Source: a virus. From it: a stretch of DNA of 63,560 bases. Positions 21,108 to 63,560 of this stretch are shown here, one piece after another (the stretch's first letter is position 1; each line of letters opens with the position of its first letter). The DNA lies in IMG/VR virus record IMGVR_UViG_3300027852_000005, positions 1 to 63,560 of that record; one strand, written 5' to 3'. The position numbers and the translations under genes were made by a program. Below the pieces are notes generated by a model. It saw only the letters and a list, made by a program, of their open reading frames with translations, was not told the origin of the DNA and searched no databases.

Positions 21108-21148
21108 ATATAACATGTAGAAGGTCCGAGAGACAAGTTCTATTTGTC
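21108..21148 (-). promoter_or_regulatory. Dyad-type promoter P3
   Basis: Sense: GACAAATAGAACTTGTCT-N17-TTATAT. Confidence 0.55.
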
Positions 21149-39159: not shown

Positions 39160-39499
39160 TTTCCATCAGATTGTACCAGTAGCGGGTGATCCCCATCAAA
39201 TCAGCGCAGGATTGCTGCGTCCAACCTGAACGGCGTCTCCAGATAAGGCATTGCTCCGCTCCTGTGAGCGGTTCTATTGATATGTTGCACTTGGCAGTCC
39301 CTTCGGTTTCCATCTCACTGTAGCGTCGGCGCTTAACGCCAGACAGAGCGGCCATCTGTTTTTGGCTGAACCCCATACGGCGGCGATAGATCAGGCTGCG
39401 TTCTCCTTCAGATAAGTCAAGAGTTTCTCCACTTGTAGGCCGTTCGGGAAATACAGTACCGCGTTCGCGATCATCTCCGGCCTCGTCATGTTGTCCCAT
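39110..39499 (-). CDS. Tandem-HTH (XRE-like) DNA-binding protein (start uncertain; ~129 aa from ATG 39499)
   Basis: There are two repeats: LIYRRRMGFSQKQMAALSGVKRRRYSEMETEG and LIWRRRSGWTQQSCADLMGITRYWYNLMENGK. It overlaps the 3' end of 39391..39813 in another frame. Confidence 0.5.
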   Translation of the reverse strand: MGQHDEAGDDRERGTVFPERPTSGETLDLSEGERSLIYRRRMGFSQKQMAALSGVKRRRYSEMETEGTAKCNISIEPLTGAEQCLIWRRRSGWTQQSCADLMGITRYWYNLMENGKVPSGKLEAFWNER

Positions 39500-39813
39500 A
39501 GGTTGTTTTCCTTGATGTGCTTTCCGGACCAAAAGAACCACGACTTGCTGACCTGAGCGCATACCAGCGCCAGACCTCCGCGTCTCTCCCGACGGTATAG
39601 CCATACTTGCTGCTCTTTGGAAAGAGGGTGTGTGAACTTCACTGGCTTGGTGTCTGCTGTCTTGGGCCAGTATCTCATCCATTTGCATTCTATCACACCG
39701 CCAATAAAAAAGACGTCCGGAATACCAAGTCCAGTCGAAGGGCTCTCAATACTCACTGCATCCAGTGGCTTGAGTTTCTTTACGAGGTTGGAACGGCTTG
39801 ATGCTTCGGACAT
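39391..39813 (-). CDS. VRR-NUC-like nuclease (140 aa)
   Basis: Trimmed to ATG 39813 (MSEASSRSNLVKK...). The motif GIPDVFFIGGVIECKW...LSKEQQVWL fits the PD-(D/E)xK VRR-NUC pattern. Confidence 0.5.
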   Translation of the reverse strand: MSEASSRSNLVKKLKPLDAVSIESPSTGLGIPDVFFIGGVIECKWMRYWPKTADTKPVKFTHPLSKEQQVWLYRRERRGGLALVCAQVSKSWFFWSGKHIKENNLWDNMTRPEMIANAVLYFPNGLQVEKLLTYLKENAA

Positions 39814-39826
39814 TTCATGAACCCTT

Positions 39827-39867
39827 ATACTAGTGGCGTGACAGGCAATTGACAAGTTCTACTTATC
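39827..39867 (-). promoter_or_regulatory. Dyad-type promoter P12
   Basis: Sense: GATAAGTAGAACTTGTCA-N17-TAGTAT. The dCMP deaminase TAA (39863-65) lies inside the element. Confidence 0.6.
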
Positions 39868-40315
39868 GGGGAATTTCAACTAATTCCACTCCCGCTTCTT
39901 CGAACATTGACTTGGAGATTTCAATCTGTTCTGCCCACCTTTGGGCATAATCGCTGCTAAGACACTGAGACACAACTCGCTTGATACCATGCTGGATAAT
40001 CAATCCACAACAGGTGCAGCAAGGGAACTCGGTGGTATAGAGGGTGGCACTCTCGAACCCAAGAAGAGGGCGTTCTCGCTGCATCATCCGCGCTCCAGCG
40101 ACCAGAGCGTCAGCTTCGGCATGGATCACACGTGGATACTTTTGGGTACGATCCTCCCACCGCTCGTCGCTGTCTACCACACCTTCTGGAAACTGGTTCC
40201 AGCCGATAGAGAACACCTTTCCCTCCAGAGTGATAACCGCCCCCACTTTCGTGGAGGGGTCAGGACTGAACGTACTGGCGTGGACAGCTTGCGACATGAA
40301 TTCTTGATGGTTCAT
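39863..40315 (-). CDS. dCMP deaminase (150 aa)
   Basis: Zinc motifs HAEADAL and PCCTCCGLIIQHGIKRV. Confidence 0.85.
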   Translation of the reverse strand: MNHQEFMSQAVHASTFSPDPSTKVGAVITLEGKVFSIGWNQFPEGVVDSDERWEDRTQKYPRVIHAEADALVAGARMMQRERPLLGFESATLYTTEFPCCTCCGLIIQHGIKRVVSQCLSSDYAQRWAEQIEISKSMFEEAGVELVEIPR

Positions 40316-40851
40316 CGCTTTTCCACCTTGTCGATCATCATGTACGACTTATAGACGCAGCGGACTTGATGCTTACAGTCGTCCAGAGAATAGTGGTAGA
40401 TACCCTGACGAGGAATGGTCTTGGTGTTCAGACCAGCCGCATCATAGATCGTACGGGTATCGCGGGTTTTGTAGAATTGCCACGGCGGTTTGACACCGAC
40501 AAATTTGCAGGTCGCTTCCCATAGAACACTGTCGAAGTTCGCGCCTTGAGACCAAACAAACTGGAGACGGTTCGCTTTCCAGAAATTGTTAAAGCCATTG
40601 ACCACGGTTTTCAGATCAGCTTGGTTCGGTTCAAGAACGTCCTTGGCTTCCTGACCTTGGCGTTCCCACCATTTGACCGTGTCTGGGTCTTTGAAGGCAC
40701 CAGCGGCAATCTGATCTTCTTCAGTGATGTTTTTGTAGAACTCTTCGCCCAAGGAGGGAGTTCGCGGATCAAAGGCGACCGCACCGATGGAGCGGATGAC
40801 GCAGCCTGCGCCAGTGCCAAAAGTCTCCAAGTCTAACATACAGTGTTTCAA
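40312..40851 (-). CDS. DnaQ-fold 3'-5' exonuclease (Rv2179c-like, 179 aa; TTG start)
   Basis: MLDLETFGT...IRSIGAVAFD...DTVKWW...GANFDSVLW...TRDTRT...HYSLDDCKHQ. Confidence 0.75.
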   Translation of the reverse strand: MKHCMLDLETFGTGAGCVIRSIGAVAFDPRTPSLGEEFYKNITEEDQIAAGAFKDPDTVKWWERQGQEAKDVLEPNQADLKTVVNGFNNFWKANRLQFVWSQGANFDSVLWEATCKFVGVKPPWQFYKTRDTRTIYDAAGLNTKTIPRQGIYHYSLDDCKHQVRCVYKSYMMIDKVEKR

Positions 40852-40852
40852 G

Positions 40853-41152
40853 TTATGTTCCTTCTACATGCTGATGGGAACCGTCTGAGGCAATAGTCCA
40901 TGCGCGCTTCCGGTTAATGACGAGTTTCTTGGCAACCTCTTCCATGAGGTCGAAGCCGTTCTTCTCGCAAATTTGAATGAGGAAGAAAGCCACGTCAGCG
41001 CATTCTTCGCCGATATCTTTCTTGCTCATGCTGTTGGAAATGGTGGAAACCAGTTCGGCCATCTCTTTGTTGCCTCGAATGGCGATTTTGAGTTCAGGAA
41101 TTTCACCGAACTCCCCTTCTGCCCAATCGAGGACTTCTTTCTGTAAACTCAT
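40853..41152 (-). CDS. MazG-like nucleotide pyrophosphohydrolase (99 aa)
   Basis: ...NKEMAELVS...IGEECADVAFFLIQICEKNGFDLMEEVAKKLVINRKR. Confidence 0.75.
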   Translation of the reverse strand: MSLQKEVLDWAEGEFGEIPELKIAIRGNKEMAELVSTISNSMSKKDIGEECADVAFFLIQICEKNGFDLMEEVAKKLVINRKRAWTIASDGSHQHVEGT

Positions 41153-41223
41153 AGCTTTCCCTTTTTGACTACTAATTCAGATCTAACATGACGCGAGCGC
41201 CGCAAAATTTTAGGATATTCTGA

Positions 41224-43299
41224 TTATTTGATTTCTCCCCAACTAGGTCCTGTCTCGGTGTCCACTTTGAATGGAACCAGAGGTCGGCACCGCTTGAGAA
41301 CACAGTCCCTCATAATATCACCAACTGCCACCGCTTCTGCGACTGAGCCATAGCTACCATCTGTCTCATCATGCACCTGCAATTGCAGATACGCATCAGT
41401 CTTATCAATCTCGACCAATGCAAGTTTCGTTTGGTCTGCAGATGACCCTTGGATCACCCTGTTCAATGCTTTGTGAGTATAGTCATAAGAACCATCATCA
41501 CGCTGCTCGAAATGAAGGTGGCGGTTAAAGATAGTCTTAACAAATCCCTTTCCTTCTGCTCTCGCCGTTGCCGCCTTTGCCAATGCTCCAACGAACGGAG
41601 CCTCTCTGTCGAACTTATCTAGGATCTCTTGTCCCTCTTCACCAGCCATCTCCTTATAGTAGCCAGTCCCCGCATCCATCCTTGCAGCCATCGCATCTTG
41701 CTTATCTTCGTAGTAATTAATGCGGCGTTTCTTGCCCCATCCTGAGATATGTGCCCAACGAGTAGGCTTGCCGATGTCCTCACAGAGTTTGGCTCCGCCT
41801 TCACCGTAGCATAGCCCAAGGTAGATCGCCTTGGAGAAGCCTCGCTCCAACTTAAATTGCTTTGGGTCAGTCGCCAACCATGCGTCAACCGCTGTATCAC
41901 CGTTAACGATACGGGTCATCATTTCATGGTTGTCTGTGCTTGGGTCGTCTCTGTATCGCTTGGCTGCGTCTCTGGCTTTTGGGAAGTCCATGAGGGCTGC
42001 GAAGTGTGTTGTCCATCGTGGTTCTTGCTGTGAGTAATCATTACAACCCCAGATGGCTCCTTCCTCGGGAATGAAGATCTTGCGCCATTCGCCAGCAATG
42101 ATCGGATCTCTATCGGGCGAAGGTTGCTGCTGGAGGTTCGGATCGACCGCCGAACACCTTCCATAGCGAACACCTTTCTGTATGCCTTGCTCGTTCTCGG
42201 CTGCGATTTGCTTAAACGAGCAGTGGATCTTGCCGTTAACTGCATACTTGCGAATAGACTCTGCAAAGGTGGTTCTAATCTTGTTTACTTTGCGAGCATG
42301 TAGGATTGCATCAGCGACAGGATGGTCAGCACCAGCGAGCAACGCTTTGTCAATTTGTGGATTGCCAGTAGACGTCTTATTTAGACGCATACCGATATCT
42401 TCCAGCGCAGGTGCGATGACGTTGGGTTTCCAGATATTACCGACGCCGATGTCAACACCAGTCGCTCGCTTAACTGTGTCCAGTGACTTGAGTTCCTCAT
42501 CCATTGACCACTTCTCAATAGACGATAGCTTGTCAAAGTCAATCCGCACACCACGGCGACGCATTCTTACGAGAACAGGAAGGACGTCCGTCTCGAGGTC
42601 CCAGATTTCACGGAGGCCAGCTTTCTCAATTTTTTCTTCTTGTATTCGTAGGATTTCAAGCGGCGAGGTGACGTCTTGTTCACCATACGCCCCGACGAAG
42701 CGAGCGGGTAGCCGCCATAGTCCTTTCTTTGCATCGAGACCGTGGGCTTGTGCTGCCTCGATGAGGAGTGTTTCATCTTTTGCTTCAACTCCGCATCGCT
42801 CACCAATCTTGGCAAGTGAATACGACCATTCGAGTTCGTTGAGCAAGGGATCCGCAATCTGAATATCGCGGAACTTAGCCTCGCGATGCCATTCAAAGCC
42901 ATCGTTATATCCATAGTCAACATCGTAGGCAAGGTTAGCTCCGACAAACTCTCCTGTGAAGTTTTTGATGTTGTCCCGGAGGTAGCGCAGGACTTCGGTT
43001 TCGTCCATGTTGTCTCCTCCTTCGTGTCTGAAGGGGAGGTAGTGTTTTGGTCCTCCGTCAATGGCGAAGGCCCATCCAACTGTATAACCGTCTCGCATTT
43101 GACCAGTCCCGAGACCATTCCCAATTGATGGATCCCTTGTCTCAGCATCGATAGCTATCCTTTTTGCATTAGCCCAAGAAGGAAGATCAGCGATCGCGGG
43201 AGGACGCCAGTCTGCTTTGGGCATGAACATAGACATCTGGAGAGGAGACTCTCCATTATTCCTCGCTTTCGCGGCTGCTTGTTTTGTCTGCTTTGCCAT
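41224..43299 (-). CDS. Family A DNA polymerase with 3'-5' exonuclease domain (691 aa)
   Basis: Exo I is IAIDAETRD. The DPNLQQQP region is also present. Motif B is KAIYLGLCYGEGG and motif C is LQVHDE. Confidence 0.9.
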   Translation of the reverse strand: MAKQTKQAAAKARNNGESPLQMSMFMPKADWRPPAIADLPSWANAKRIAIDAETRDPSIGNGLGTGQMRDGYTVGWAFAIDGGPKHYLPFRHEGGDNMDETEVLRYLRDNIKNFTGEFVGANLAYDVDYGYNDGFEWHREAKFRDIQIADPLLNELEWSYSLAKIGERCGVEAKDETLLIEAAQAHGLDAKKGLWRLPARFVGAYGEQDVTSPLEILRIQEEKIEKAGLREIWDLETDVLPVLVRMRRRGVRIDFDKLSSIEKWSMDEELKSLDTVKRATGVDIGVGNIWKPNVIAPALEDIGMRLNKTSTGNPQIDKALLAGADHPVADAILHARKVNKIRTTFAESIRKYAVNGKIHCSFKQIAAENEQGIQKGVRYGRCSAVDPNLQQQPSPDRDPIIAGEWRKIFIPEEGAIWGCNDYSQQEPRWTTHFAALMDFPKARDAAKRYRDDPSTDNHEMMTRIVNGDTAVDAWLATDPKQFKLERGFSKAIYLGLCYGEGGAKLCEDIGKPTRWAHISGWGKKRRINYYEDKQDAMAARMDAGTGYYKEMAGEEGQEILDKFDREAPFVGALAKAATARAEGKGFVKTIFNRHLHFEQRDDGSYDYTHKALNRVIQGSSADQTKLALVEIDKTDAYLQLQVHDETDGSYGSVAEAVAVGDIMRDCVLKRCRPLVPFKVDTETGPSWGEIK

Positions 43300-43913
43300 T
43301 ATCTTATGTCACCAGGATGCCAATCATCAGCTGAATCATAGCCGAATGGGTGTTCTTGGCCATCAACGCCCCTACTTGCGACCTCTGTGGACGTGCTGGA
43401 CGTTGTGGCTTGGGTGGTAGCACCACCAGCGCATCCGTTGCCCCCTGTTTTTGCCGCCTGTGGCGCGGTTAGAGGTGCCAATGGGCCAAGGGTGCCGCCA
43501 GCATCTAGCGTGGCCTGTGCGGCTTCTATGTGCGCCGAGATTTGGCCGATGATAAGGCTGATATCCGAATCATTGCGCCATTGTGCCATGGAGAGGCAGA
43601 GATCAGCTTCGATATCAGGCAAGTCTGCGCTATCAGCGAACGTACCGAACAGAGTTTCGGCCTTGTCACGAGCCAGCGGCCAGCTATCAACGTGCAGACA
43701 CTTGTTGTCCCAACGACCTTCAAGAAAACATTCCTTGGCTTTGAGCAGGTAGGACCGAGCCTTGTCCAGATCTTCAATGCCGTTCTTCTTGTACCAGCGG
43801 AAGGCATACTTGGAGGCAGCGCTCTCGAGATACCCAAGGCGAACATCGATCGCCCAGTCCCAGTGCTGATAGTCAGCTTCGTAGTGGCTTCCGCCAATTT
43901 GCGTAGATTTCAT
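43299..43913 (-). CDS. DUF3310 (SaV-like) protein with a long C-terminal extension (204 aa)
   Basis: GGSHYEADYQHWDWAIDVRLGYLESAASKYAFRWYKKNGIEDLDKARSYL is the DUF3310 signature. The extension ...TLGPLAPLTAPQAAKTGGNGCAGGATTQATTSSTSTE... is encoded by element E5. Confidence 0.65.
   Translation of the reverse strand: MKSTQIGGSHYEADYQHWDWAIDVRLGYLESAASKYAFRWYKKNGIEDLDKARSYLLKAKECFLEGRWDNKCLHVDSWPLARDKAETLFGTFADSADLPDIEADLCLSMAQWRNDSDISLIIGQISAHIEAAQATLDAGGTLGPLAPLTAPQAAKTGGNGCAGGATTQATTSSTSTEVASRGVDGQEHPFGYDSADDWHPGDIR
43380..43520. repeat. G-rich dispersed element copy E5 (translated inside 43299..43913)
   Basis: GACCTCTGTGGACGTGCTGG (43380-99) is homologous to GACCTCTACGGACGTGTTGG (56921-40), followed by a TTGTGGCTTGGGTGGTAGC core. 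Confidence 0.55.
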
Positions 43914-44467
43914 TACATATCTCCAAGGTCAGGACACATCTGCCAAGAATGGTCCTGTAGTGTGTAGTAGAAATTGAGAAGTTCTGGTGCGAACAAGTGC
44001 TTCTCCCGTTCAATGAACCACTCAATGCGATCCTTCATAGTTAGGACATTCTGGTTGCCAATCATAACCTGATCTTTGCAGAACAGATACAATTCCAAGA
44101 TGTCTAGCCCCCGAAGCCATTTGAGATCTTCTTCGGTCAGTTCCAATTCAGCGACCCATCCAAAGATTTCGTCATTGATTGCTATCTCTGCTTGGGTCAG
44201 ATGATCCTTGTCCACAATCTTGAACCACTTGGTCGGCGAAGGGATATCGCCTGTGAGGCGCTCCGGTACATCGTGTTCTTGGATAGCCCAAACAAGGCAG
44301 ATAGGTGGGTCTGGATGCAAGAGACGCAGCATCGAGAGCATGTTGTAAGAGTGACCACCGACAAAGTACTCACCGATGATCGGCAAGGTGTGACAGCGAC
44401 GCACTGCCGCTGCCTCCCGTGTGAATTTCACTTTGTTGACTATATCGTCCAGCTTATAGATACTCAT
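43913..44467 (-). CDS. HD-domain 5'-deoxynucleotidase (YfbR-like, 184 aa)
   Basis: Trimmed to ATG 44467 (ATGA-coupled to the ThyA-like gene). The sequence ...RRCHTLPIIGEYFVGGHSYNMLSMLRLL...VWAIQEHDVPERLTGDIPSPTKW parallels E. coli YfbR ..ENVSEHS...YHDASEVLTGDLPTPVK. Confidence 0.7.
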   Translation of the reverse strand: MSIYKLDDIVNKVKFTREAAAVRRCHTLPIIGEYFVGGHSYNMLSMLRLLHPDPPICLVWAIQEHDVPERLTGDIPSPTKWFKIVDKDHLTQAEIAINDEIFGWVAELELTEEDLKWLRGLDILELYLFCKDQVMIGNQNVLTMKDRIEWFIEREKHLFAPELLNFYYTLQDHSWQMCPDLGDM

Positions 44468-45462
44468 ACGCCCCGACGCTCCAACCATTCGATACAGGCT
44501 TTGCGCCAGTCAGTCGCGGCAATCTCGTTTGCCTTTTCAATCGCAGCTTCTTTATAGCCAGCGATATCACGGTTCTTCCATCGCATCCAGCTTTGAAGCA
44601 TCGGCACGGCCACCTTCTTGAAGAAAGGATCAGTGTATCCGATAATTGGACCTTCGTCCATGAACATCGCCAGTTCTGAATGCCATTTCTCGATGTCTAC
44701 ATTAACAATCGGGAACGGCTCAACTTCACCTGTTTGATAAGGTGTAAGTCCGCGATCTGTTTCCAGAAGTGGTTTCACCTTTTCATAGGTGTTGAGATAA
44801 GCGTGGAAGTTAGTGCTGATCTGCCAGTATTTACCGACAGGCACACCGATCCAAGTTGCCATGACTTCTTGTAGGAATGACATATGAACAGCGTTCGCTC
44901 CGTAAGCGCCCCAGACCATATCATTGCTACGATTGAACACCGTCATATCAAGCTCCCCGTTAGGGTTGATACGGAACGTGATAATCAGGTTGCAAGGGAA
45001 GTCTTTTCCCTCAAGCCCAAGGTCATCTGTCGCGCTCCACATCTGCAACACCGTGCGGCGATCGTCGGGGTTCTGTTTCAGCAGAGCAGCAATGGTTGCC
45101 AGTTGATCGAGAACACCACCCTGGACTTCGAAGTGGTTCCGCCAGCGATAACCGTAGGCACCATGGAAGTTGACTCCATCGTCGGTGTAATTGGCGATGT
45201 TGCTGCTGAACTGCGAGATCCAATCAACGTCTCGGCGACCAGCGATCATCCAGAGACATTCCATGAAGTGGAAGTATGGATTACAGTCCCGTTCTGGCAG
45301 GAACATAACCCGCTCTCTTGGGCTTCCATACACCGTAGTCAGAGGTTCTGGCATGACCATCACTGGACCATTGCGACTGTCGCGGCGAACACCTTCGGCT
45401 GTGACCAGTGCGGTCCCTTCCATAAGTGCCTCTTCCACATTGCGAACTGAGATAATATGCAT
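44464..45462 (-). CDS. Thymidylate synthase (ThyA)-family enzyme: either true TS or dUMP hydroxymethylase (332 aa)
   Basis: ...RDCNPYFHFMECLWMIAGRRD..., DQLATIAALLKQNPDDRRTVLQMW, the catalytic FPCN, and NRSNDMVWGAYGANAV (compare E. coli QRSCDVFLGLPFNIAS). The Asn suggests uracil specificity. Confidence 0.75.
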   Translation of the reverse strand: MHIISVRNVEEALMEGTALVTAEGVRRDSRNGPVMVMPEPLTTVYGSPRERVMFLPERDCNPYFHFMECLWMIAGRRDVDWISQFSSNIANYTDDGVNFHGAYGYRWRNHFEVQGGVLDQLATIAALLKQNPDDRRTVLQMWSATDDLGLEGKDFPCNLIITFRINPNGELDMTVFNRSNDMVWGAYGANAVHMSFLQEVMATWIGVPVGKYWQISTNFHAYLNTYEKVKPLLETDRGLTPYQTGEVEPFPIVNVDIEKWHSELAMFMDEGPIIGYTDPFFKKVAVPMLQSWMRWKNRDIAGYKEAAIEKANEIAATDWRKACIEWLERRGV

Positions 45463-46743
45463 CTAGCGTAGTACTCCGAAATGGTCGAACAGTTGATTTT
45501 CGACTTTGGTTTCAATTGCTTCGGAAACTGTCCCTTGGGTAGCCTCCGTTTCGATCTCACCGTGCGCCAGATCAATGACACGTTGCGCCACTGTCTTCCG
45601 GTCAAACATTGGTAAGAGTTCACGGTTAGCGTCAATCATATGCTGAGCCGTTTTCGGTGCGATGCCGCTGGCATACTCAATTAGGTCTGCATACTCTTGA
45701 GCATCAGCATCCTCCGGAATGGCCATATAATGTTCACCAGCTTGGAACACTTCAGAACCCATTCCTTTCTCCCTGGCGACGACACAGCATCCTCGCATCA
45801 TCGCGTCTACAGCCACACGGTTAAAGTGACCGCCGACCTTGGAATAATTCTTGGACCATGACGGATCAATCAGGATGCGCGCCTCGTTGAGATAGTTGTC
45901 AACTTGAGCCTTGTCCCAATAGTCATGGTGTGTCATACCGTTAGCGAGAGCAATGTCCCAGAACTTCGCGTGATTGAACCGTTCTCCATGGAAGTAGGCG
46001 TCCTTGCACTTTTCCTCGCTCGTCATGTAGCGGTACTCAATACCCAAGCCAGCAACTTCTCGCAGTTCATCTGCTTCCCTTGGGTTCATGTAGGCGATAG
46101 CTTCCACCAATTCGTGAACGTGCTTCCACGCTTTGAAGGTCTGCATGTTTACGAATCCAGGAGACTTCTGCTCCCATTTGGCGTAAGGACGCACAGGGTC
46201 TTTCTGTGGGTTGACAACCAATGTGCGAGGAACGTCGGCGAAGGCAGCACCGTTGAGAGCGCAGGGATGAACGCAGGCCAGCCCAGAGAGGCGGTCCTGA
46301 ATGGCCAGCAGATGTCCCGCTCCCTTTACTGCATTCCCATCGTGGATGAACGCAATCTGTTTAATGCTGTCTGGAAGGTCGTACAACTCTGGCCAGTCAT
46401 TATTACCGAGATTGTCTTTGTTCTTGCTTGGAACTGGCATGGTCCAAATGATGAGGTCGTACCGTTGGAGGATTTGTGATGCTCCACTAAGAGCAGCCCC
46501 ACCACGATAAGGAATACGATCTTTCCGGTCAAAGTTCCAGCCCTTTCCTTGGTGATGAGGGATACCGCTTGGGCCGATGCTCCAGTCTGCGGTCTTACGT
46601 TGGGCAGGTGCTTGAAACGCCCATACGAGTTCTTTGAGGTGAACATCATGACCGAGGTCTTTGAGACCGCCGATGAGTTGTTCTGTGTGGTCGATAATAC
46701 CACCGAGGTCCATGCACTTGTGAAGTGCGACTAATATCTTCAT
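45463..46743 (-). CDS. GT-B fold glycosyltransferase (GT4-like, 426 aa)
   Basis: The N-terminus is MKILVALHKCMDLGGIIDHTEQLIGGLKDLGHDVHL. The C-terminal FNRVAVDAMMRGCCVVAREKGMGSEVFQAGEHYMAI resembles the GT4 donor-binding region. Confidence 0.6.
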   Translation of the reverse strand: MKILVALHKCMDLGGIIDHTEQLIGGLKDLGHDVHLKELVWAFQAPAQRKTADWSIGPSGIPHHQGKGWNFDRKDRIPYRGGAALSGASQILQRYDLIIWTMPVPSKNKDNLGNNDWPELYDLPDSIKQIAFIHDGNAVKGAGHLLAIQDRLSGLACVHPCALNGAAFADVPRTLVVNPQKDPVRPYAKWEQKSPGFVNMQTFKAWKHVHELVEAIAYMNPREADELREVAGLGIEYRYMTSEEKCKDAYFHGERFNHAKFWDIALANGMTHHDYWDKAQVDNYLNEARILIDPSWSKNYSKVGGHFNRVAVDAMMRGCCVVAREKGMGSEVFQAGEHYMAIPEDADAQEYADLIEYASGIAPKTAQHMIDANRELLPMFDRKTVAQRVIDLAHGEIETEATQGTVSEAIETKVENQLFDHFGVLR

Positions 46744-46771
46744 TGGGCTGTCTCCAACAGGCTATAAAATA

Positions 46772-46812
46772 AACATAGCAGCAGAGGGCGCAAAAGACAA
46801 GTGCTAATTGTC
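46772..46812 (-). promoter_or_regulatory. Dyad-type promoter P13 (inside hairpin AGAGGGCG...CGCCCTCT, 46783-46819)
   Basis: Sense: GACAATTAGCACTTGTCT-N17-TATGTT. Confidence 0.55.
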
Positions 46813-46825
46813 GCCCTCTTCCAGA

Positions 46826-47737
46826 TTATTTCGGCGCTTTGTAGCGAGACCGTGGTCGTCCTTGGCCCAAGCGAACACGCTCATACTTGTCAAACTCACA
46901 AAGCTGGAACTGGATATCATGAGGCGCAAGGCGATCCCAATTATCAGGCCAGAACATGTCTTGTTGGAACATGAGGTCATCGATCATGTCGGCAGCAGCA
47001 GCTTCTTTGAGAGGCTTGGCTTCTTCATCACCGGCCACTCGGGCAGCACCACGTCGCGCTCCTGGACCAATGGGTGTCCAGCTGTCCCAGTCAATCGGGA
47101 AGCTGAACGTGCCATCCTTGGGGTGGCTTACCCAATTATCCCAGAAGGAAGTGTAAGTCGTGTCCAGGAGGATTTCCTTGGTCATGAAGCCAGAGCCTCC
47201 GAAACCTTGGATTTTCCTCATCTCAGTGGCGACGTCTTCCCATGACTCAGTGACAATGGTTAGATCACGAAGTTCCTCAGCCTGTTTCTGCAGAGCCTTG
47301 AGGAAGTACTCAACAACCACTTCTTGTTTGGGAGCAGATATACCTTGGTTCGTGATGACGTAGGCTCCAGTGAACACGCGCTCTTTGTTGGCCAGTCGGT
47401 CCTCAGCGAGATCTTTGACATAGTCCCAATGAAGTTCGTCCATTGCTTCGAAGTCAGTCCAGCCAATTTCAGTTGCAAATTCATGTGTTCCAAAGTAGCG
47501 GAAGGTAGCAGCGTTCATGAGGATAGTTTTCTTATCCGCATGGAAGTTGGGATTGTAGAATTGCTCCCGGAGTTCACGGCTTGTGCGATCGTGGTGCCGA
47601 TGAACGTTGGTGAATTTGAAGTCCCGCAGGATTTGATCTTCAGTCCATGGGTATGGCAAATCCGCCTCCTTTCGGAGACGGATCTGTTCGCGTTCCTCAA
47701 CAAAACTGAAGAACGCATTCACTTTGTCGAGTGCCAT
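46826..47737 (-). CDS. aGPT-Pplase-like protein (candidate DNA base hypermodification enzyme, 303 aa)
   Basis: FFSFVEEREQIRLRKEADLPYPWTEDQILRDFKFTNVHRHHDRTS and GFGGSGFMTKEILLD resemble my recollection of the alpha-glutamyl/putrescinyl thymine pyrophosphorylase family. This was not verified by search. Confidence 0.4.
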   Translation of the reverse strand: MALDKVNAFFSFVEEREQIRLRKEADLPYPWTEDQILRDFKFTNVHRHHDRTSRELREQFYNPNFHADKKTILMNAATFRYFGTHEFATEIGWTDFEAMDELHWDYVKDLAEDRLANKERVFTGAYVITNQGISAPKQEVVVEYFLKALQKQAEELRDLTIVTESWEDVATEMRKIQGFGGSGFMTKEILLDTTYTSFWDNWVSHPKDGTFSFPIDWDSWTPIGPGARRGAARVAGDEEAKPLKEAAAADMIDDLMFQQDMFWPDNWDRLAPHDIQFQLCEFDKYERVRLGQGRPRSRYKAPK

Positions 47738-48453
47738 TATTCGGCAGCGGCCTTCGCAGCAGCTTTCTCAGCAGCAGCTTTGTCTTTGGCAGCTTTCGCT
47801 TCGGCCCGTTCTTTGGCCTTGGCTTCCTTGGCAGCTTCGCGATCGGCCTTCTTGGTAGCGGCGGCTTCTTCCCGTTCAGCTTTCGCTTTCGCGCGCTCTT
47901 CGGCTTTCAGACGCTTGGCTTCCTCAGGGTCGGTGAGGCCGTGCTTCTTGTACCATGCCGCCTTGCGTTCAGCGAACTGTTCGTCAGTCGGTTCAGTCAC
48001 GGACATAATGCCAGCGCCGACCCAATTGTAAACGTCCCAAGGCTCGGTGCCTTCGGTCTCGATCACGTCAACGATGGTCATGCCATCCTTGTAGTTCGGC
48101 CAGCGATGGGTCCGGCCCTGAGTGCCGTCGTGTTCGCCAGTTTTCTCAATAGTCGAGAACATTTTATTGTTCGGACGCTTTACAGTTTTTGCTTCTGCCG
48201 ATTTGGCCAGACCGCGCTCTTTGGGCGGCTGTTTCGCCTTGGCTTCCTTGGCAGCAGCTTTGTCGACGCTCTTCGCGTGACGTTGCAGTGCCTTCCAAGT
48301 CTGGGAAGCGCCGGAGGCTTGATCTTTGAAACCTTTGACTTCCGCGACGCCGAGGCTGACAGCCACTTCGTTACGCAAGGTCAGAAGATCGTCAACAGAC
48401 ATTTCGGCCAGATAGGCCTCAGTATACGCGGTGTCGTTGAAGTTGATATCCAT
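47737..48453 (-). CDS. Protein with a Lys/Ala/Glu-rich histone-like C-terminal tail (238 aa)
   Basis: The C-terminal ~65 aa reads EEAKRLKAEERAKAKAEREEAAATKKADREAAKEAKAKERAEAKAAKDKAAAEKAAAKAAAE. Confidence 0.6.
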   Translation of the reverse strand: MDINFNDTAYTEAYLAEMSVDDLLTLRNEVAVSLGVAEVKGFKDQASGASQTWKALQRHAKSVDKAAAKEAKAKQPPKERGLAKSAEAKTVKRPNNKMFSTIEKTGEHDGTQGRTHRWPNYKDGMTIVDVIETEGTEPWDVYNWVGAGIMSVTEPTDEQFAERKAAWYKKHGLTDPEEAKRLKAEERAKAKAEREEAAATKKADREAAKEAKAKERAEAKAAKDKAAAEKAAAKAAAE

Positions 48454-48560: not shown

Positions 48561-50426
48561 TTAATCGGCGCAGGCACCTGTCTTGCGGCCGAATTCATCC
48601 AGAGCACAGGAGCCTCCATCTTCAACCTGCATAGAAGCAGCAGTTGCGATTTCTGCATCCTGATTTACTTCTTCGTCACTGTCGGCAGCTTTGATCGGTT
48701 CATCATAGTTACCAGCCGGACGATAGGTTGTCAGACCCTTGGCTCCGTTTTCCCACGCGGCCATGTAGATATTCTTGAAGTCTTCGTATGGGAAGTCAGT
48801 AGGAACATTGCATGTTTTCGAGACCGCGCTATCGCTCCACCTTTGGGCAGTACACAGAACCGAGACATGCTCATCAGCCGTGATGTTTCCATCAGTAACG
48901 GTGCGACCCTTATGCCCAAGAACAGCAACGCCATAGTCTGGGATAGTGACCGTCTCAACGCCAGCCTTCATGATCACATTTCGCTTCTGCTTGTATGCAA
49001 TCACAGGCTCAATGCCAGACGACACGTTGTCAGCGTAGAGTGAGATAGTGCCAGTTGGAGCAATGCTCGTCAGGTGGGAGTTGCGGATGCCGTGTTTCTT
49101 GATCAGCGCAATGGTATCTTCCCACAGACCACCGACGAACTTGGACGCAAGATAACGTGTCTCATCGTACAGTGGGAACGAACCTTTTTCAGCGGCCAGC
49201 AGAGCAGAAGCCTGATAGCAGTGGTTCGCAATGAATTCACCAAGTTGGTCTTGGAACTCGATAAATCCAGGAGTGCCGTATGGAAAGCCCATTGCTTCGA
49301 GAGCGTTGGCCAGACCAGTGATACCGAGACCCATGCGACGTTTCCGTTGGGCTTCCATGCGTTGTTCAGGAAGAGGGTAACGGCTCCGATCAATCACATT
49401 GTCCATAGCACGGACCACATGAGGGATATCAGCTTTCAGTTTGTCCCAATCAAATGACCAGACACCACTATCCAGCTTGACGAGATATTTCACTGCGTTG
49501 AATGAACCCAAGAGGCAGGCACCATATGGAGGGAGCGGTTGCTCGCCACAAGGATTGGTCGCCGCGATCTGTTCACAGTAGTAGAGATTATTCATCTCGT
49601 TGATGCGATCAATGAACAGGACTCCTGGCTCTGCCCAATCGTATGTTCCGCGCATGATCATGTCCCACAGGGCACGAGCGTTGACTTCACGATAATCGAC
49701 GCCGCCGAACTTCAAGGTGAACATACTATCGGACTTGACCGCTTCCATGAGTTCATCAGTGACTGCGACTGACATATTGAAGCCACGCAGAGGGCGCATT
49801 TCCCAAGGAACGCTTTCGTCTGAAACCTGCTTGGCTCGGATGAATTCCTCGATGTCAGGGTGGTCGCAGCGCATCACCATCATCTGTGCGCCCCGTCGGT
49901 TGCCTGCTGAGGCAGTGCATCCACACACCTTGTCAAATATACCAGCAAAGGCAAGGGGACCATCTGTGGTGCTGTCTACGCCCTTAATGATGTCACCAGA
50001 GGGGCGCAGGGTTGAGAAGTCGTAGCCAACACCACCGCCTTGACGCATAGTCGTTGCAGCCAGCTTGGCGACGTCCATAATGCTTTCAGGAGGATGGGTC
50101 AGTGCCGTGGTACACATGAGGCGCTCAGCTTCCGTGGGACCATCGACAAAACTGTCATGAATGGTAGGCATGACAAAACAGTTGTAGAGCGTCACGTTCT
50201 TGAGAGAACCCGCTCCAGCTTGAACTCGTCCAGGTGGCATGAACCGTTGATCCATGGTACATTCGCGGAATGCCATGTAGTGTTCGTGACTGTCCTGTAA
50301 GAAACCAGCTACCCGATTTGATGCCTCTCGGTGATCTTCGTTCTTGCCTCGGTATTTCTCTGCACCGATTGCATCACAGTGTGGATTTTGTGGACCAACC
50401 ATCCGTCGCTTCTCCTGATGTCTCAT
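48561..50426 (-). CDS. nrdJ: Class II (B12-dependent) ribonucleotide reductase (621 aa from ATG 50426)
   Basis: The active-site region is ATNPCGEQPLPPYGACLLGSFN, and there is a C-terminal Cys pair ...GGSCALDEFGRKTGACAD. No NrdB/NrdG partner is present. ATG 50426 lies behind AAGGA, 10 nt after the helicase stop. Confidence 0.8.
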   Translation of the reverse strand: MRHQEKRRMVGPQNPHCDAIGAEKYRGKNEDHREASNRVAGFLQDSHEHYMAFRECTMDQRFMPPGRVQAGAGSLKNVTLYNCFVMPTIHDSFVDGPTEAERLMCTTALTHPPESIMDVAKLAATTMRQGGGVGYDFSTLRPSGDIIKGVDSTTDGPLAFAGIFDKVCGCTASAGNRRGAQMMVMRCDHPDIEEFIRAKQVSDESVPWEMRPLRGFNMSVAVTDELMEAVKSDSMFTLKFGGVDYREVNARALWDMIMRGTYDWAEPGVLFIDRINEMNNLYYCEQIAATNPCGEQPLPPYGACLLGSFNAVKYLVKLDSGVWSFDWDKLKADIPHVVRAMDNVIDRSRYPLPEQRMEAQRKRRMGLGITGLANALEAMGFPYGTPGFIEFQDQLGEFIANHCYQASALLAAEKGSFPLYDETRYLASKFVGGLWEDTIALIKKHGIRNSHLTSIAPTGTISLYADNVSSGIEPVIAYKQKRNVIMKAGVETVTIPDYGVAVLGHKGRTVTDGNITADEHVSVLCTAQRWSDSAVSKTCNVPTDFPYEDFKNIYMAAWENGAKGLTTYRPAGNYDEPIKAADSDEEVNQDAEIATAASMQVEDGGSCALDEFGRKTGACAD

Positions 50427-50436
50427 TTGTTTCCTT

Positions 50437-62732: not shown

Positions 62733-63560
62733 TTATTCATCCGTTGATTTGATACCAAAGCTGACCACACTATAGTTCGCAAAGTGCCGCCATGCAATAG
62801 TATCTGTGGCTCGACAACGCATCAGGAAAGAAATCTTGACTATTTGGTTTTCATATTCAGGACCAGAAGGTATCTCAGGGGTGAAGCCCAAGGTGGCAGT
62901 TCCATCCTCATTGATCGTGGCTGATGTTATTCTGTGCTGAGTTCTGAGACTGTCACCCTTCTTAGCTTCGCCGAACGTCAACTCAATATTGTCCCATGTC
63001 TTGTAGGAATTAAACTGATTTACGAATTCACCTTCCTCAATTATGAATTGGGAAGCACCGTCTGGAACAGTCTGTGTTCCTTCCAGAGTAAGATCTGGGA
63101 AGTAAGTCGATAGAAGGAACGTGCCATGAGCGCCGCGAACAGTGTCAAACAGAGAACGCCAGTAATCCATTTCATCAGGATCACTGATTCGCTGGATCAA
63201 GAAGGAGCGATTTCCTACCACTCTTGGGTGAAGATGACTGCTGTTCAGATCTCGTTGACCAGTGCTGTTGTCGATGAGTTCCCGTTCAAACTCGAAGCCC
63301 TCATTCGCACCAGCCAGAGGTCTCCGATTAAGAAGCGGTATATCACCGAGCATATCTATTGTGCGAGTTGCTCCCGGACGTAGCAGGGAGTCTTCTTGAA
63401 GGGACTTCGCCCTGATAGAAAGAACACCTGTGATAGTGTTCATCTGAATACCAGAGCCATCTAAGATAATACAAGTGGCAGTCGGCATGACAACCCAAGT
63501 GGGACCACCAATCTCTTCTCCTGATGCGGTATTGAGAATTGCTCCATCTGCTTCAATTGA
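62733..63560 (-). CDS. 3' part of the junction-spanning tail gene (see 1..1027). Bases 63434-63560 duplicate 1-127.
   Basis: ORF-track 62733..63488 begins at an internal Met only because the window ends. The frame remains open to 63560 and continues at base 128 of the left end. Confidence 0.75.
   Translation of the reverse strand, partial: SIEADGAILNTASGEEIGGPTWVVMPTATCIILDGSGIQMNTITGVLSIRAKSLQEDSLLRPGATRTIDMLGDIPLLNRRPLAGANEGFEFERELIDNSTGQRDLNSSHLHPRVVGNRSFLIQRISDPDEMDYWRSLFDTVRGAHGTFLLSTYFPDLTLEGTQTVPDGASQFIIEEGEFVNQFNSYKTWDNIELTFGEAKKGDSLRTQHRITSATINEDGTATLGFTPEIPSGPEYENQIVKISFLMRCRATDTIAWRHFANYSVVSFGIKSTDE
63434..63560. repeat. Right copy of the 127-bp terminal direct repeat
   Basis: Identical to 1-127. 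Confidence 0.95.

Follow-up and report, generated by a model that had tools for sequence, protein, structure and literature searches.

Phage T4 produces glucosyl-hydroxymethylcytosine with the dCMP hydroxymethylase gp42 and alpha- and beta-glucosyltransferases. In kinetoplastids, base J depends on the thymidine hydroxylases JBP1/2 and the glucosyltransferase JGT. Pseudomonas phage M6 and other yuaviruses contain 5-NedU, and the M6 cluster encodes ADDT (gp51), a PLP enzyme (gp52), an rSAM enzyme (gp53), 5-HMUDK (gp54), a PF18723 protein (gp55), and a dUMP hydroxymethylase (gp58) (Lee et al. 2018, 2021). M6 and its kind start from 5-hmdU DNA, as was shown experimentally, and the clade 2 transferase ADDT (PF18724; M6 gp51, ViI gp247) works with the kinase in described systems, while M6 gp55 was not required for N-alpha-glycinylthymidine formation in lysates (PMC8989533). 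Phage sugar clusters combining 5mYOX/TET enzymes with TAGT and GT-B glycosyltransferases are also known (bioRxiv 10.1101/2023.12.21.572611; PMC8256090; PMC13229309), and metavirome glycosyltransferases have been associated in bulk with ThyS genes (bioRxiv 10.1101/2023.12.21.572611). Neither PF18723 nor a 5-hmdU pathway without a kinase was mentioned in the literature searched.

Genome context of the locus

The window, meaning the whole 63,560-nucleotide stretch of DNA analyzed (IMG/VR record IMGVR_UViG_3300027852_000005), has a 127-bp exact overlap between its termini and is therefore a complete assembly, corresponding to a phage genome of ~63.4 kb. The phage is uncultured and marine, and its genome is that of an M6-like siphophage, with synteny to M6 extending over Dda/RecD helicase, RNR, gp49, gp55, gp58, gp59, gp61, PolA, gp65, gp66, gp67, and primase. 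The block from 39863 to 48453 constitutes its module for nucleotide metabolism and replication. All operon genes named in an earlier sequence-only reading were found where it had placed them, on the minus strand.

Gene junctions in the operon are tight. The TAG of the glycosyltransferase (GT) gene abuts the ATG of the ThyA-like gene without a gap, the ThyA-like and HD genes meet in ATGA (provided that the HD start is 44467), and three further boundaries of the block are of the TAATG type. A 238-aa protein of unknown function (47737 to 48453, minus strand; pI 8.5), with a Lys/Ala/Glu-rich C-terminal tail and no match in Pfam or PHROG, is 44% identical at its N terminus to the first ~60 aa of M6 gp49; its gene is kept directly upstream of the PF18723 gene in related loci, and its stop overlaps the PF18723 start (TAATG).

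The HD/YfbR-like phosphohydrolase (43913 to 44467, ORF to 44488) gave weak, sub-threshold Pfam YfbR-like/HD_3 matches and a match to phrog_6047 (E 5e-34); it carries the HD dyad at residues 72 to 73 and is 37% identical to M6 gp59. The DUF3310-type protein (43299 to 43913; Pfam sub-threshold, phrog_5839 E 7e-18) is a homologue of M6 gp61. PolA, a family A DNA polymerase (41224 to 43299), is 47% identical to the M6-type polymerase region and is conserved in all related loci, while the MazG-like nucleotide pyrophosphohydrolase (40853 to 41152; Pfam weak, E 0.007; phrog_9147 E 1e-13) is limited to closer relatives. An Rv2179c-like 3′-5′ exonuclease (40312 to 40851; PF16473, E 1e-41) and a dCMP deaminase (39863 to 40315; PF00383, E 7e-19; 40% identical to M6 gp65) complete the block. 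Some relatives have a dCTP-deaminase/dUTPase-fold gene in this region instead of the dCMP deaminase.

The ThyA-family protein is a predicted dUMP 5-hydroxymethylase

The 332-aa ThyA-family enzyme (44464 to 45462, minus strand) matched PF00303 (E 1e-25) over residues 54 to 236 only and phrog_5131 with an E value of 3e-124. It is 50% identical to M6 gp58, and tblastn ranked M6-like sequences ahead of SPO1-like (E 2e-40), ViI-like (E ~1e-25), and canonical thymidylate synthase (TS; E ~1e-6 to 1e-9) sequences; the best PDB match was the CMP hydroxymethylase MilA. In a neighbor-joining tree, the protein grouped with homologues from M6, Epa5, SPO1-like, and ViI-like 5-hmdU phages and was split from the canonical set (E. 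coli ThyA, T4-like td, Bacillus-phage ThyA, and Bosa TS) with 100% bootstrap support. The catalytic residue is Cys157. Alignment placed Asp154 at the position of E. coli L143 and showed D169 and N177 to be kept, as Asp181 and Asn190, and the WDEW folate segment and C terminus of TS to be replaced. Asp154 together with the kept D169 and N177 fits the published rule for hydroxymethylating, uracil-specific ThyA homologues (PMC13326640). The sequence-only reading would have been refuted by a position inside canonical TS; the protein instead fell outside them and carries the signature residues for hydroxymethylation and for uracil. From residues and phylogeny, without an assay, we predict that this gene encodes a dUMP 5-hydroxymethylase. 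A 5-hydroxy-dCMP synthase was ruled out by the retention of D169 and N177.

The Pfam match to the thymidylate synthase family, and the many GenBank homologue records that say thymidylate synthase, could instead suggest an ordinary nucleotide-metabolism operon, with a true TS, canonical DNA, and the GT and PF18723 genes as unrelated passengers. This explanation is already disfavored, and we give it very little credence: the bootstrap-supported separation from canonical TS, the Asp at the L143 position, and the loss of the WDEW segment and TS C terminus argue against it, the nearest characterized phages all use 5-hmdU, and PF18723 and GTs co-occur in 66 of 73 related loci.

A clade 1 PF18723 protein without a kinase or ADDT

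The 303-aa protein encoded at 46826 to 47737 (minus strand; function unknown) belongs to PF18723 (E 5e-33; 115 bits against a cutoff of 25). Pfam now names this family HMUDK_hel; it was previously aGPT-Pplase clade 1, the label that GenBank gives to M6-type members (gp55 homologues). The earlier comparison with aGPT-Pplase was thus correct as to family, but the kinase-partner transferase of described systems is clade 2 and the window protein is clade 1. The protein is 30% identical to M6 gp55 and has a pI of 5.2. Its AlphaFold2 model is all alpha (pLDDT 92.8) and had no fold neighbor in the PDB, where no sequence match was found either; hhalign gave no link to the ADDT M6 gp51. Cys280-Glu281, in QFQLCEFDKYERV, was invariant in a 40-sequence alignment, and GFGGSGFMTKE forms a hairpin. 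Bacterial PF18723 homologues are located in unrelated contexts.

The absence of a spare P-loop ORF, initially noted from the letters alone, extended to the whole genome: the only proteins with a Walker A motif are the large terminase, the primase-helicase, and the RecD-like helicase. M6 gp51 to gp54 and gp56 had no tblastn match in the window, and ~36 window ORFs scanned against Pfam included no kinase or NDP-sugar enzyme. In the complete genome, we detected neither a kinase nor an ADDT, a PLP enzyme, or an rSAM enzyme, and it also lacks a phage dNMP kinase.

One way to interpret this combination is that the GT and PF18723 proteins form a two-step group-transfer system replacing the kinase/ADDT pair, with Cys-Glu attacking C6 to yield an exocyclic methylene, either directly from 5-hmdU or from its glycoside. 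In that case the base ultimately formed would be no simple O-glycoside and might be thymine or an adduct with another nucleophile. Cys280-Glu281 and many polar residues are invariant in PF18723, the Cys-Glu pair recalls the essential Cys and nearby Glu of clade 2 transferases (PMC8989533), and the family is kept under strong conservation in kinase-less phages. Moreover, SP10 gp186 is a PF18723 protein fused to the 5-hmdU DNA kinase, SP10 has no detected clade 2 paralogue (PMC5889632), and the route from 5-hmdU to T in these phages is still unexplained (PMC5889632; PMC8989533). We nevertheless consider such a mechanism distinctly unlikely. No relationship to clade 2 enzymes was detectable for PF18723 at the level of sequence, profile, or fold, the in vitro reaction ran without M6 gp55, neither a glycoside nor a free hydroxyl is a good leaving group, and direct evidence is absent.

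A discrete GT-B family lies between the two genes

The gene at 45463 to 46743 (minus strand) encodes a 426-aa GT-B (GT4-like) protein that matched Glycos_transf_1 with 34.7 bits (cutoff, 26.4). Pfam, the AlphaFold2 model (GT-B fold, pLDDT 92.6), and Foldseek agreed with its initial description as GT-B glycosyltransferase-like. The top Foldseek matches were GT4 enzymes and T4 alpha-glucosyltransferase (AGT), including DNA complexes (E ~1e-11, TM ~0.6), and the resemblance to AGT was no closer than that to GT4 enzymes with lipid, sugar, or small-molecule substrates. Against BFVD, the model matched the SP-15 GT, its second-best viral structural neighbor, and proteins labeled DNA alpha-GT. The protein is acidic (pI 5.9), and it retains the classical GT4 E-x7-E motif only in degenerate form (G305/H306 ... 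D313). No homologue was found among 50,697 isolated phages. The family is discrete and metagenomic, with 141 clusters at E<=1e-30 and only 280 at E<=1e-3 among 1.84 billion representatives, and it is nearly confined to the PF18723/hydroxymethylase context. We predict that the protein is a DNA 5-hmdU glycosyltransferase, no member of the family having been characterized.

A promoter/operator-like element (46772 to 46812, minus strand) lies upstream of the GT gene. It consists of the palindrome GACAA-N7-TTGTC, which overlaps a -35-like TTGTCT, a 17-nt spacer, and a -10-like TATGTT. The element, originally read as a promoter, agrees with the sigma-70 consensus at only 8 of 12 positions, under the scan threshold, but has other support: in 23 of 24 related loci the core TTGTCTTTTG-N13-TATGNT recurs ~55 to 62 nt ahead of the start of the GT gene, and the palindrome is enriched (4 copies in the window against 0.38 expected, a number reached in 0 of 100 shuffles). 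The gene that ends at 20516 is preceded by the same layout, and the one that ends at 21136 by the palindrome.

Glycosyltransferases are exchanged within a conserved slot

We analyzed 80 related loci, chosen from 452 as those with the PF18723 homologues closest to that of the window; the counts are therefore biased. The kinase and ADDT HMMs rested on only 5 to 6 seed sequences, and the scan was limited to ±7 kb. The GT gene lay between PF18723 and the hydroxymethylase in all 24 loci with a long enough contig, at GT identities down to 49%. Much of the strict synteny could stem from shared ancestry in one phage clade.

The decisive evidence came from comparing these loci. Among the 73 IMG/VR loci with PF18723 and a hydroxymethylase, 33 carried GT-B and 33 carried TAGT, while a kinase was detected in only 3 and ADDT in 1. 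TAGT is unrelated to the window GT-B; all 22 distinct members matched PF20691 (best E 3e-26), with R...DDD invariant, and the TAGT gene sits between PF18723 and the hydroxymethylase in 31 of its 33 loci. The slot also hosts an NAD-dependent sugar epimerase/dehydratase, an APH-like kinase and nucleotidyltransferase, an FkbM methyltransferase, a radical-SAM enzyme, and another GT4-like protein, and some loci add NDP-sugar tailoring genes. Since GT-B and TAGT lineages are interleaved on the PF18723 tree, the GT type has been exchanged repeatedly. The earlier suggestion of a glycosylated hydroxymethyl-pyrimidine or a pathway variant gained strong independent support from the TAGT and NDP-sugar genes in the same slot of sister phages.

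These loci also bear on whether the GT acts on DNA at all. The phage might make 5-hmdU DNA and direct the GT-B to a virion protein, a host envelope glycan, or a small molecule, leaving the DNA unsugared, as plain 5-hmdU or regenerated T. We judge this unlikely, although the acidic GT has mostly GT4 neighbors that use lipids, sugars, and small molecules, and its family has no characterized member. Against a non-DNA acceptor, the gene lies inside a nucleotide-metabolism operon and abuts the hydroxymethylase in all related loci, sister lineages place TAGT, which is tied to DNA base glycosylation, in the same slot, and the family is discrete and nearly restricted to this operon context even at the permissive threshold (280 clusters).

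Proposed pathway

The best reading, which we hold with moderate confidence in the absence of nucleoside chemistry and of a cultured relative, is pre-replicative 5-hmdU substitution followed by kinase-independent DNA O-glycosylation. Points that weigh against it are the degenerate E-x7-E motif of the GT, its equal resemblance to GT4 enzymes with other substrates, and the acidic pI of both the GT and the PF18723 protein. The homologies and signature residues suggest that dCMP deaminase supplies dUMP and that the ThyA-family enzyme converts it to 5-hydroxymethyl-dUMP. Host kinases, proposed because a phage dNMP kinase is absent, would carry this to the triphosphate, and the HD and MazG hydrolases may remove competing dT/dU nucleotides, a role that is inferred only. 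PolA would then place 5-hmdU in DNA where T would be, which requires that it use 5-hmdUTP.

Three observations lead us to infer that the GT-B O-glycosylates the 5-hydroxymethyl group in the DNA polymer: its fold, the strict order of the genes, and its non-orthologous displacement by a DNA-GT family that is already known. The donor would be a host NDP-sugar, since the genome lacks sugar-activating genes. Because the structural neighbors of the GT are of the retaining type, the product is probably alpha-glycosyl-5-hydroxymethyl-dU, a predicted base comparable to T4 glucosyl-hmC and base J. PF18723 would be a conserved partner acting on 5-hmdU DNA without any kinase. Its role is open; most likely it recognizes or flips the base for the derivatizing enzyme, or it processes 5-hmdU that escapes glycosylation. 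The expected gain is resistance to restriction and to other DNA-targeting defenses. If true, this would be a "base J-like" phage DNA, not yet described, with a GT in place of the DNA kinase and amino-acid transferase of relatives.

Comparison with known systems

The proposed pathway resembles that of T4 in that a ThyA homologue provides the hydroxymethyl-pyrimidine nucleotide ahead of replication and, once the DNA has been replicated, a GT-B attaches sugar from a host NDP-sugar; the window GT model superposes on AGT-DNA complexes (E ~1e-11, TM ~0.6). It differs in the base, which is uracil (Asn190) rather than cytosine, in a GT-AGT sequence identity of only ~12%, in the extra conserved PF18723 partner, and in the absence of a phage dNMP kinase. 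With base J it shares the predicted product class, glycosylated 5-hydroxymethyluracil in DNA. However, 5-hmU would come from a ThyA homologue before replication rather than from oxidation of T in DNA, and the window GT is a GT-B whereas JGT is a GT-A. A closer analogue is found in the TAGT-bearing sister loci.

Phage 5mYOX/TET clusters likewise combine GT-A (TAGT-like) and GT-B DNA glycosyltransferases, epimerases, an APH-like kinase, and nucleotidyltransferases, but their characterized pathways oxidize 5mC or T in DNA and lead to glycosyl-5hmC. In the arabinosyl-5-hydroxycytosine system of RB69/DLP3, a ThyA homologue (5hodCMP synthase) also stands beside DNA GTs (PMC13326640); a 5hoC system was rejected for the window, which lacks the diagnostic D169N and N177D (Asp181, Asn190). 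SP-15, YerA41, and Carin-5 carry sugar-bearing (oligosaccharide-hypermodified) thymidine derivatives (PMC12686479), but they are unrelated ~145- to 220-kb myoviruses with a dihydroxypentyl linker plus phosphate and UDG-fused polymerases, and their gene order is not common with that of the window.

M6 shares with the window both the synteny of the replication module and pre-replicative 5-hmdU as the first step. The kinase, ADDT, PLP enzyme, rSAM enzyme, and Nmad5 of M6 have no counterpart in the window, where the GT-B occupies the site of M6 gp56 and gp57. The predicted product is accordingly of another kind: an O-glycoside in the window, as opposed to the amino-acid-derived side chain of M6.

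RESULTS

The operon lies in a complete genome and is collinear with the replication module of phage M6

The window begins and ends with the same exact 127-bp direct repeat (positions 1 to 127 and 63434 to 63560), indicating that it represents a complete genome of ~63.4 kb (63,433 bp), either circularly assembled or terminally redundant. A search for tRNA genes, which might have given a clue to the host, found none in the window. Every gene named in an earlier sequence-only reading, which had proposed a thymidine-hypermodification or glycosylation operon at 39863 to 48453, was recovered on the minus strand where that reading had placed it. In transcription order, the tightly packed, co-oriented block encodes a RecD/Dda-like helicase (50437 to 51675), a ribonucleotide reductase (48561 to 50459), a 238-aa protein (47737 to 48453), a 303-aa protein of the Pfam family PF18723 (46826 to 47737) and, after an 82-nt spacer, a 426-aa glycosyltransferase (GT; Pfam Glycos_transf_1; 45463 to 46743), a ThyA-like enzyme (44464 to 45462) and an HD hydrolase (43913 to 44467). 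A DUF3310 protein, PolA, a MazG-like protein, an Rv2179c-type exonuclease and dCMP deaminase (39863 to 40315) follow in that order, and the block ends with a small helicase-associated protein and a primase-helicase, also co-oriented. Junctions within the block include a TAG codon directly followed by ATG, ATGA overlaps, and TAATG.

Megablast of the 8.6-kb block against 50,697 isolated phage records gave no match. Comparison of the encoded proteins shows the block to be collinear with the replication module of Pseudomonas phage M6 (Yuavirus, Mesyanzhinovviridae): the window has homologues of M6 gp49, gp55, gp58, gp59, gp61, gp65, gp66, gp67, the polymerase, and the primase, with their order kept. 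Two long overlapping minus-strand open reading frames (39110 to 39688 and 39391 to 39855) lie between the dCMP deaminase and primase-helicase genes. One (154 aa) is a homologue of M6 gp66 (phrog_2165), and the other (192 aa) has two Pfam HTH domains and a C-terminal part that matches M6 gp67; gene boundaries in this stretch are uncertain.

The ThyA-like enzyme has the residues predicted for a dUMP hydroxymethylase

In tblastn searches, the closest relatives of the ThyA-like enzyme were encoded by M6-like phages (46 to 52% identity; 50% for M6 gp58), followed by SPO1-like Bacillus phages (36%; E, 2e-40), ViI-like Ackermannviridae (~30%; E, ~1e-25) and, last, canonical phage thymidylate synthases (TS; E, 1e-6 to 1e-9). 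A simple neighbor-joining tree gave the same division with 100% bootstrap support. The window enzyme grouped with two relatives and with the enzymes of M6, Epa5, an SPO1-like phage, and a ViI-like phage, apart from E. coli ThyA, a T4-like td, a Bacillus-phage ThyA, and the TS of Xanthomonas phage Bosa. Placement among canonical TS had been set beforehand as a refuting result and was not obtained.

Published rules for the ThyA family (PMC13326640, 2026) assign a dUMP substrate to enzymes with N177 and a dCMP substrate to those with Asp there; a bulky L143 keeps water out, Asp or Glu at that position marks hydroxymethylases, and D169N marks 5-hydroxy-dCMP synthases. Aligned to E. coli numbering, the window enzyme has catalytic Cys157, Asp154 at the L143 position, Asp181 at D169, and Asn190 at N177. 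This is the signature of a dUMP hydroxymethylase, rather than of a TS, a dCMP enzyme, or a 5-hydroxy-dC synthase; the activity itself, conversion of dUMP and methylene-THF to 5-hmdUMP, is inferred from residues and phylogeny. The enzyme also lacks the WDEW folate segment and the C terminus of TS, in place of which the window, M6-like, SPO1-like, and ViI-like enzymes share an ~100-aa helical tail. Its best sequence match in the PDB is the CMP hydroxymethylase MilA. Membership of the ThyA family leaves room for an ordinary TS operon, a reading that the tree and these residues make highly improbable. A 5-hydroxy-dCMP synthase leading to arabinosyl-5-hydroxy-C, as in RB69, was ruled out because D169 and N177 are both retained.

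The annotated TS of phage Bosa (Mesyanzhinovviridae; L052, 308 to 1234) groups with canonical TS yet has Asp at the N177 position (LPYDVMG). By the published rule its predicted substrate is dCMP, which would imply that its pathway leads to 5-methyl-dC or 5-hydroxymethyl-dC. The gene adjoins one for dCMP deaminase.

The M6 kinase and amino-acid transferase have no counterparts in the window

M6 DNA is first made with 5-hydroxymethyl-dU (5-hmdU) fully replacing T; 5-hmdU is then phosphorylated by the P-loop kinase gp54, the phosphate is displaced with glycine by gp51 (a clade 2 aGPT-Pplase, now called amino-acid:DNA transferase [ADDT]), and the product is tailored by a PLP enzyme and a radical-SAM enzyme (PMC8989533). 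No counterparts of M6 gp51, gp52, gp53, gp54, or gp56 were found in the window by tblastn. The sequence-only reading had seen no spare P-loop frame, and this held for the complete genome: Walker A motifs occur only in the terminase, the primase-helicase, and the RecD-like helicase. Six-frame Walker A scans, tblastn with M6 gp54, and Pfam scans of window ORFs all failed to reveal a hidden kinase. The Pfam scans likewise found no sugar-nucleotide genes. Kinship with the T-hypermodified marine phage Carin-5, SP-15, or YerA41 was considered and rejected; those are unrelated large myoviruses.

The glycosyltransferase has a GT-B fold compatible with a DNA acceptor

The proposed GT-B glycosyltransferase was borne out by both profile and structure: the protein scores 34.7 bits against Glycos_transf_1 (cutoff, 26.4), and its AlphaFold2 model is a confident GT-B fold of two Rossmann domains (pLDDT, 92.6). 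Foldseek returned 407 PDB matches at E ≤ 1e-3, the best 50 of which are all GT-B enzymes. Its neighbors are retaining enzymes of the GT4 type (HepE, PimA, MshA, BshA, and glycogen synthase), and T4 DNA alpha-glucosyltransferase (AGT) matches at the same level (E, ~1e-11; TM score, ~0.6), including its complexes with DNA and with the HMU base. Among viral models, the GT matches an SP-15 glycosyltransferase and proteins labeled DNA alpha-GT. Since GT4 enzymes and T4 AGT match equally well, the fold is compatible with a DNA acceptor and does not prove one.

GT4 enzymes canonically carry an E-x7-E motif. In the window protein this motif is degenerate (stretch GGHFNRVAVDAM): the first Glu is replaced (G305, followed by invariant H306), and across the family the position of the second is held by Asp or Glu (D313). 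The family is a discrete one, comprising only 280 clusters at E ≤ 1e-3 (141 at E ≤ 1e-30) in a set of 1.84 billion representatives. It has no homologue at E ≤ 1e-3 in the 50,697 isolated phages (tblastn) and is frequent on metagenomic contigs of 60 to 67 kb, some of them from Tara and other marine samples.

Two unrelated glycosyltransferase folds are exchanged at the same position

We found 24 IMG/VR loci with this GT (down to 49% identity). As far as each contig extends, all keep the order 238-aa protein, PF18723 protein, GT, hydroxymethylase, HD hydrolase, DUF3310, PolA, and none of the 24 carries an M6-type kinase, ADDT, PLP enzyme, or radical-SAM enzyme. A PF18723 profile search gave 452 viral stretches. 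We analyzed the best 80 of these, i.e., those nearest to the window, and counted the 73 that have a hydroxymethylase within 7 kb; kinase and ADDT were sought with home-made HMMs built from 5 to 6 seed sequences.

The GT-B family is present in 33 of the 73 loci, and in another 33 it is replaced by a 240- to 307-aa family. All 22 distinct members of the latter match the TET-associated glycosyltransferase (TAGT) family PF20691 (best E, 3e-26) and share an invariant R...DDD motif. Kinase without GT occurs in two loci, one of which also has an ADDT, and a weak kinase match stands beside TAGT in one further locus. The remaining five have neither a GT-B/TAGT gene nor a kinase: one has a weak GT4-like protein, and the others have an unassigned ~330-aa family, alone or with a radical-SAM enzyme. 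The TAGT gene lies between the PF18723 and hydroxymethylase genes in 31 of 33 cases. The same slot also holds an NAD-dependent sugar epimerase/dehydratase (E, 2e-52), a radical-SAM/SPASM enzyme, an FkbM methyltransferase, an APH-like kinase with an NTP-transferase (both weak matches) and, occasionally, Nmad5. Some TAGT members, APH, NTP_transf, and GT4 for one family score below the Pfam gathering threshold.

In a PF18723 tree, GT-B and TAGT lineages interleave, and gp55 of the kinase-bearing phage M6 nests among them. Together with the shared slot, this indicates that two unrelated GT folds, along with sugar-activating and sugar-tailoring genes, have been repeatedly swapped between PF18723 and the hydroxymethylase, which argues for glycosyl transfer, tied to 5-hmdU, as the function under selection at this slot. 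Phage GT-A enzymes of the TAGT kind have been shown to add sugar to 5hmC in DNA, and in structure they are related to the glucosyltransferase of base J (bioRxiv 10.1101/2023.12.21.572611). The GT might still act on a non-DNA acceptor, which its equal likeness to GT4 enzymes would permit; set against the repeated swapping beside the hydroxymethylase, we regard this as unlikely. That the window GT moves a sugar onto a 5-hydroxymethyl-pyrimidine in DNA is supported only indirectly, by its AGT-like fold, its gene position, and its replacement by TAGT in sister loci; the transfer is inferred.

Two kinds of variation around the core were also observed. A radical-SAM/SPASM enzyme and/or an FkbM-type methyltransferase adjoins the GT in nine loci (L079, L085, L086, L110, L095, L096, L098, L127, and L133), with extra tailoring genes between the PF18723 and GT-B genes in the first four; these additions suggest further sugar or base tailoring and lineage-specific modified nucleosides. 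Eight loci (L008, L013, L014, and L016 to L020) lack dCMP deaminase, MazG, and the exonuclease and have a dCTP-deaminase/dUTPase-fold gene in that region instead (e.g., L013, 15247 to 15531). The route to dUMP thus appears interchangeable, while the PF18723-GT-hydroxymethylase-HD core is fixed.

A recurrent palindromic element precedes the glycosyltransferase gene

The sequence-only reading had placed a promoter at 46772 to 46812. As a sigma-70 promoter it is poor, matching only 8 of 12 consensus positions, and a consensus promoter/terminator scan of 39 to 49 kb did not exceed shuffled expectation; its support comes from conservation and recurrence. A core, TTGTCTTTTG-N13-TATGNT, is kept in 23 of 24 relatives at 55 to 62 nt upstream of the GT start, including those whose spacer is otherwise diverged. 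It overlaps the palindrome GACAA-N7-TTGTC, which occurs four times in the window (15421 to 15437, 20576 to 20592, 21132 to 21148, and 46796 to 46812) against 0.38 expected; none of 100 shuffles reached four. At 20.6 and 46.8 kb, the palindrome comes with a −35-like TTGTCT and a −10-like TAnnnT separated by a 17-nt spacer, shortly before a gene start; the 21.1-kb palindrome also directly precedes one. On these grounds we regard the element as a genuine promoter/operator that recurs in this phage. Its appearance is that of a phage-specific promoter whose operator would bind a dimeric regulator. Its position implies that the genes from GT to deaminase are transcribed as a single unit and that the PF18723 gene is part of the one upstream.

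PF18723 is conserved without a kinase and has no structural relative

The 303-aa protein matches PF18723 at 115 bits (cutoff, 25) over residues 6 to 290 and profile positions 4 to 276 of 281. M6 gp55 and the C-terminal domain of SP10 gp186 match the model as well, and gp55 homologues are annotated "aGPT-Pplase clade 1" in GenBank records. The resemblance to the aGPT-Pplases proposed in the sequence-only reading therefore holds: the protein is a full-length PF18723 protein of the kind shared with M6 gp55. It is not a clade 2 transferase, since only PF18723 matches, even at E ≤ 10. Amino-acid transfer has been shown for clade 2 (PF18724; M6 gp51 and ViI gp247), not for clade 1. M6 gp55 was dispensable in lysate reconstitution (PMC8989533), and the literature that we searched states no function for PF18723 or clade 1.

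Fusions such as SP10 gp186, which a Pfam scan resolved into kinase (PF18748) plus PF18723, accord with the Pfam name "5-hmdU DNA kinase, helical domain." The association that the name implies does not hold here: the window has no kinase, and among the 73 related viral loci a kinase lies within ±7 kb in only 3. The family is nonetheless strongly constrained. Its sole cysteine is invariant and lies in QFQLCEFDKYERV (Cys280-Glu281), and a GFGGSGFMTKE..D hairpin and GPGARRG are likewise invariant. Because it is kept and conserved without a kinase, its role must be independent of 5-phosphomethyl-dU.

AlphaFold2 modeled the protein (m124fcf6a943c) as all-alpha (pLDDT, 92.8; pTM, 0.90). The model had no PDB Foldseek match at E < 1, including the solved clade 2 transferases and helix-hairpin-helix glycosylases. 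There was also no PDB sequence match, including the PaMx11 gp46 and YuA structures, and no profile link to M6 gp51 (hhalign probability, 0.5%). PF18723 is thus a fold for which no structure has been solved. Iyer et al. (2013), as quoted in PMC8989533, predicted a helix-hairpin-helix DNA-glycosylase-like fold; the model does show helix-GFGGSG-helix and GPGARRG hairpins, and Foldseek finds no glycosylase at E < 1.

We can only speculate on function. PF18723 could be a recognition or base-flipping partner of the derivatizing enzyme, which fits its fusion to the kinase in SP10, or it could itself deal enzymatically with residual 5-hmdU; how M6, ViI, PhiW-14, and SP10 turn 5-hmdU into T has yet to be explained (PMC5889632). 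By analogy, the invariant Cys-Glu pair may echo the Cys and Glu chemistry of clade 2. That echo would leave room for a two-step exchange system of GT and PF18723 with a non-glycoside product; the lack of a sequence, profile, or fold relationship to clade 2 enzymes and the dispensability of M6 gp55 speak against it, and we think it quite unlikely.

PF18723 homologues 41 to 44% identical to the window protein also occur in bacterial genome contigs (L027 to L030), from an Erythrobacteraceae isolate and from Alphaproteobacteria, Rhodospirillaceae, and "Mycobacterium" metagenome-assembled genomes. None of these four genes has a ThyA-like, kinase, or GT neighbor. In all four loci (e.g., L029, 9842 to 12167, and L028, 898 to 3077) the gene is convergent with genes for a dCTP-deaminase-fold protein and an unassigned ~200-aa protein; the former matches PF22769 in L028 and L029 and has a hydrophobic C-terminal tail in L029. 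The surroundings in L029 are core genes (hslVU, an Exo_endo_phos nuclease, lolA, and ftsK). This context is no more than suggestive of a nucleotide or repair role, and the bacterial genes may serve a cellular role or a defense triad.

DISCUSSION

We lean toward a pathway of 5-hmdU substitution followed by glycosylation of the DNA by the GT-B enzyme, a proposal that is purely computational, with no chemistry and no cultured member. dCMP deaminase would supply dUMP, and the hydroxymethylase would convert it to 5-hmdUMP. Host kinases and the phage PolA would then place 5-hmdU in DNA, the HD and MazG hydrolases might trim competing nucleotides (roles that are inferred only), and the GT-B would finally glycosylate the hydroxymethyl group in DNA with a host NDP-sugar.

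All four of the reference phages for thymidine hypermodification (PhiW-14, SP10, ViI, and M6) encode PF18723, which has no assigned function and no structural relative, and the kinase-less phages offer a clean natural experiment on it. A bolder proposal, to which we give only a modest chance as a whole, is that PF18723 is either a kinase-independent enzyme of unseen fold that acts on 5-hmdU DNA through its invariant Cys-Glu, the long-sought activity turning leftover 5-hmdU into thymine, or a universal base-flipping or targeting subunit for any derivatizing enzyme (the kinase in M6, ViI, and SP10; GT-B or TAGT in the marine clade), and that the phages package a base-J-like, alpha-glycosylated 5-hmU genome whose glycan differs by lineage. 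With two GT folds, an epimerase, a sugar kinase plus nucleotidyltransferase, a methyltransferase, and a radical-SAM enzyme, the slot shows combinatorial glycan diversity. The enzymes could serve to label or map 5-hmU in DNA, and modified genomes are likely underrepresented or miscalled in amplification-based and nanopore viromics.

Synthesis of a hydroxymethyl-pyrimidine before replication and glycosylation in DNA afterward are familiar from T4. Glycosyl-5-hmU has to date been known as base J, from kinetoplastids and their relatives. If the glycosylation pathway is correct, uncultured phages of a widespread clade, many of them from marine samples, make it too, by a route that differs from that of base J in using a ThyA-type hydroxymethylase before replication and a GT after it. 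Metavirome GTs have been associated in bulk with ThyS genes (bioRxiv 10.1101/2023.12.21.572611); the searchable literature yielded no 5-hmdU pathway with a GT in place of the kinase/ADDT pair, no PF18723-GT-hydroxymethylase architecture with a swappable glyco-cassette, and no phage glycosyl-5-hmdU made by a ThyA-hydroxymethylase and GT route. The M6-type system of 5-hmdU DNA kinase and ADDT (Lee et al. 2018, 2021) shares with the window genome the ThyA-family dUMP hydroxymethylase, whereas its P-loop kinase (PF18748) and its ADDT (PF18724) are both missing here. The pathway, if true, would constitute a third branch of thymidine hypermodification, beside the kinase/amino-acid-transferase and SP-15-type branches.
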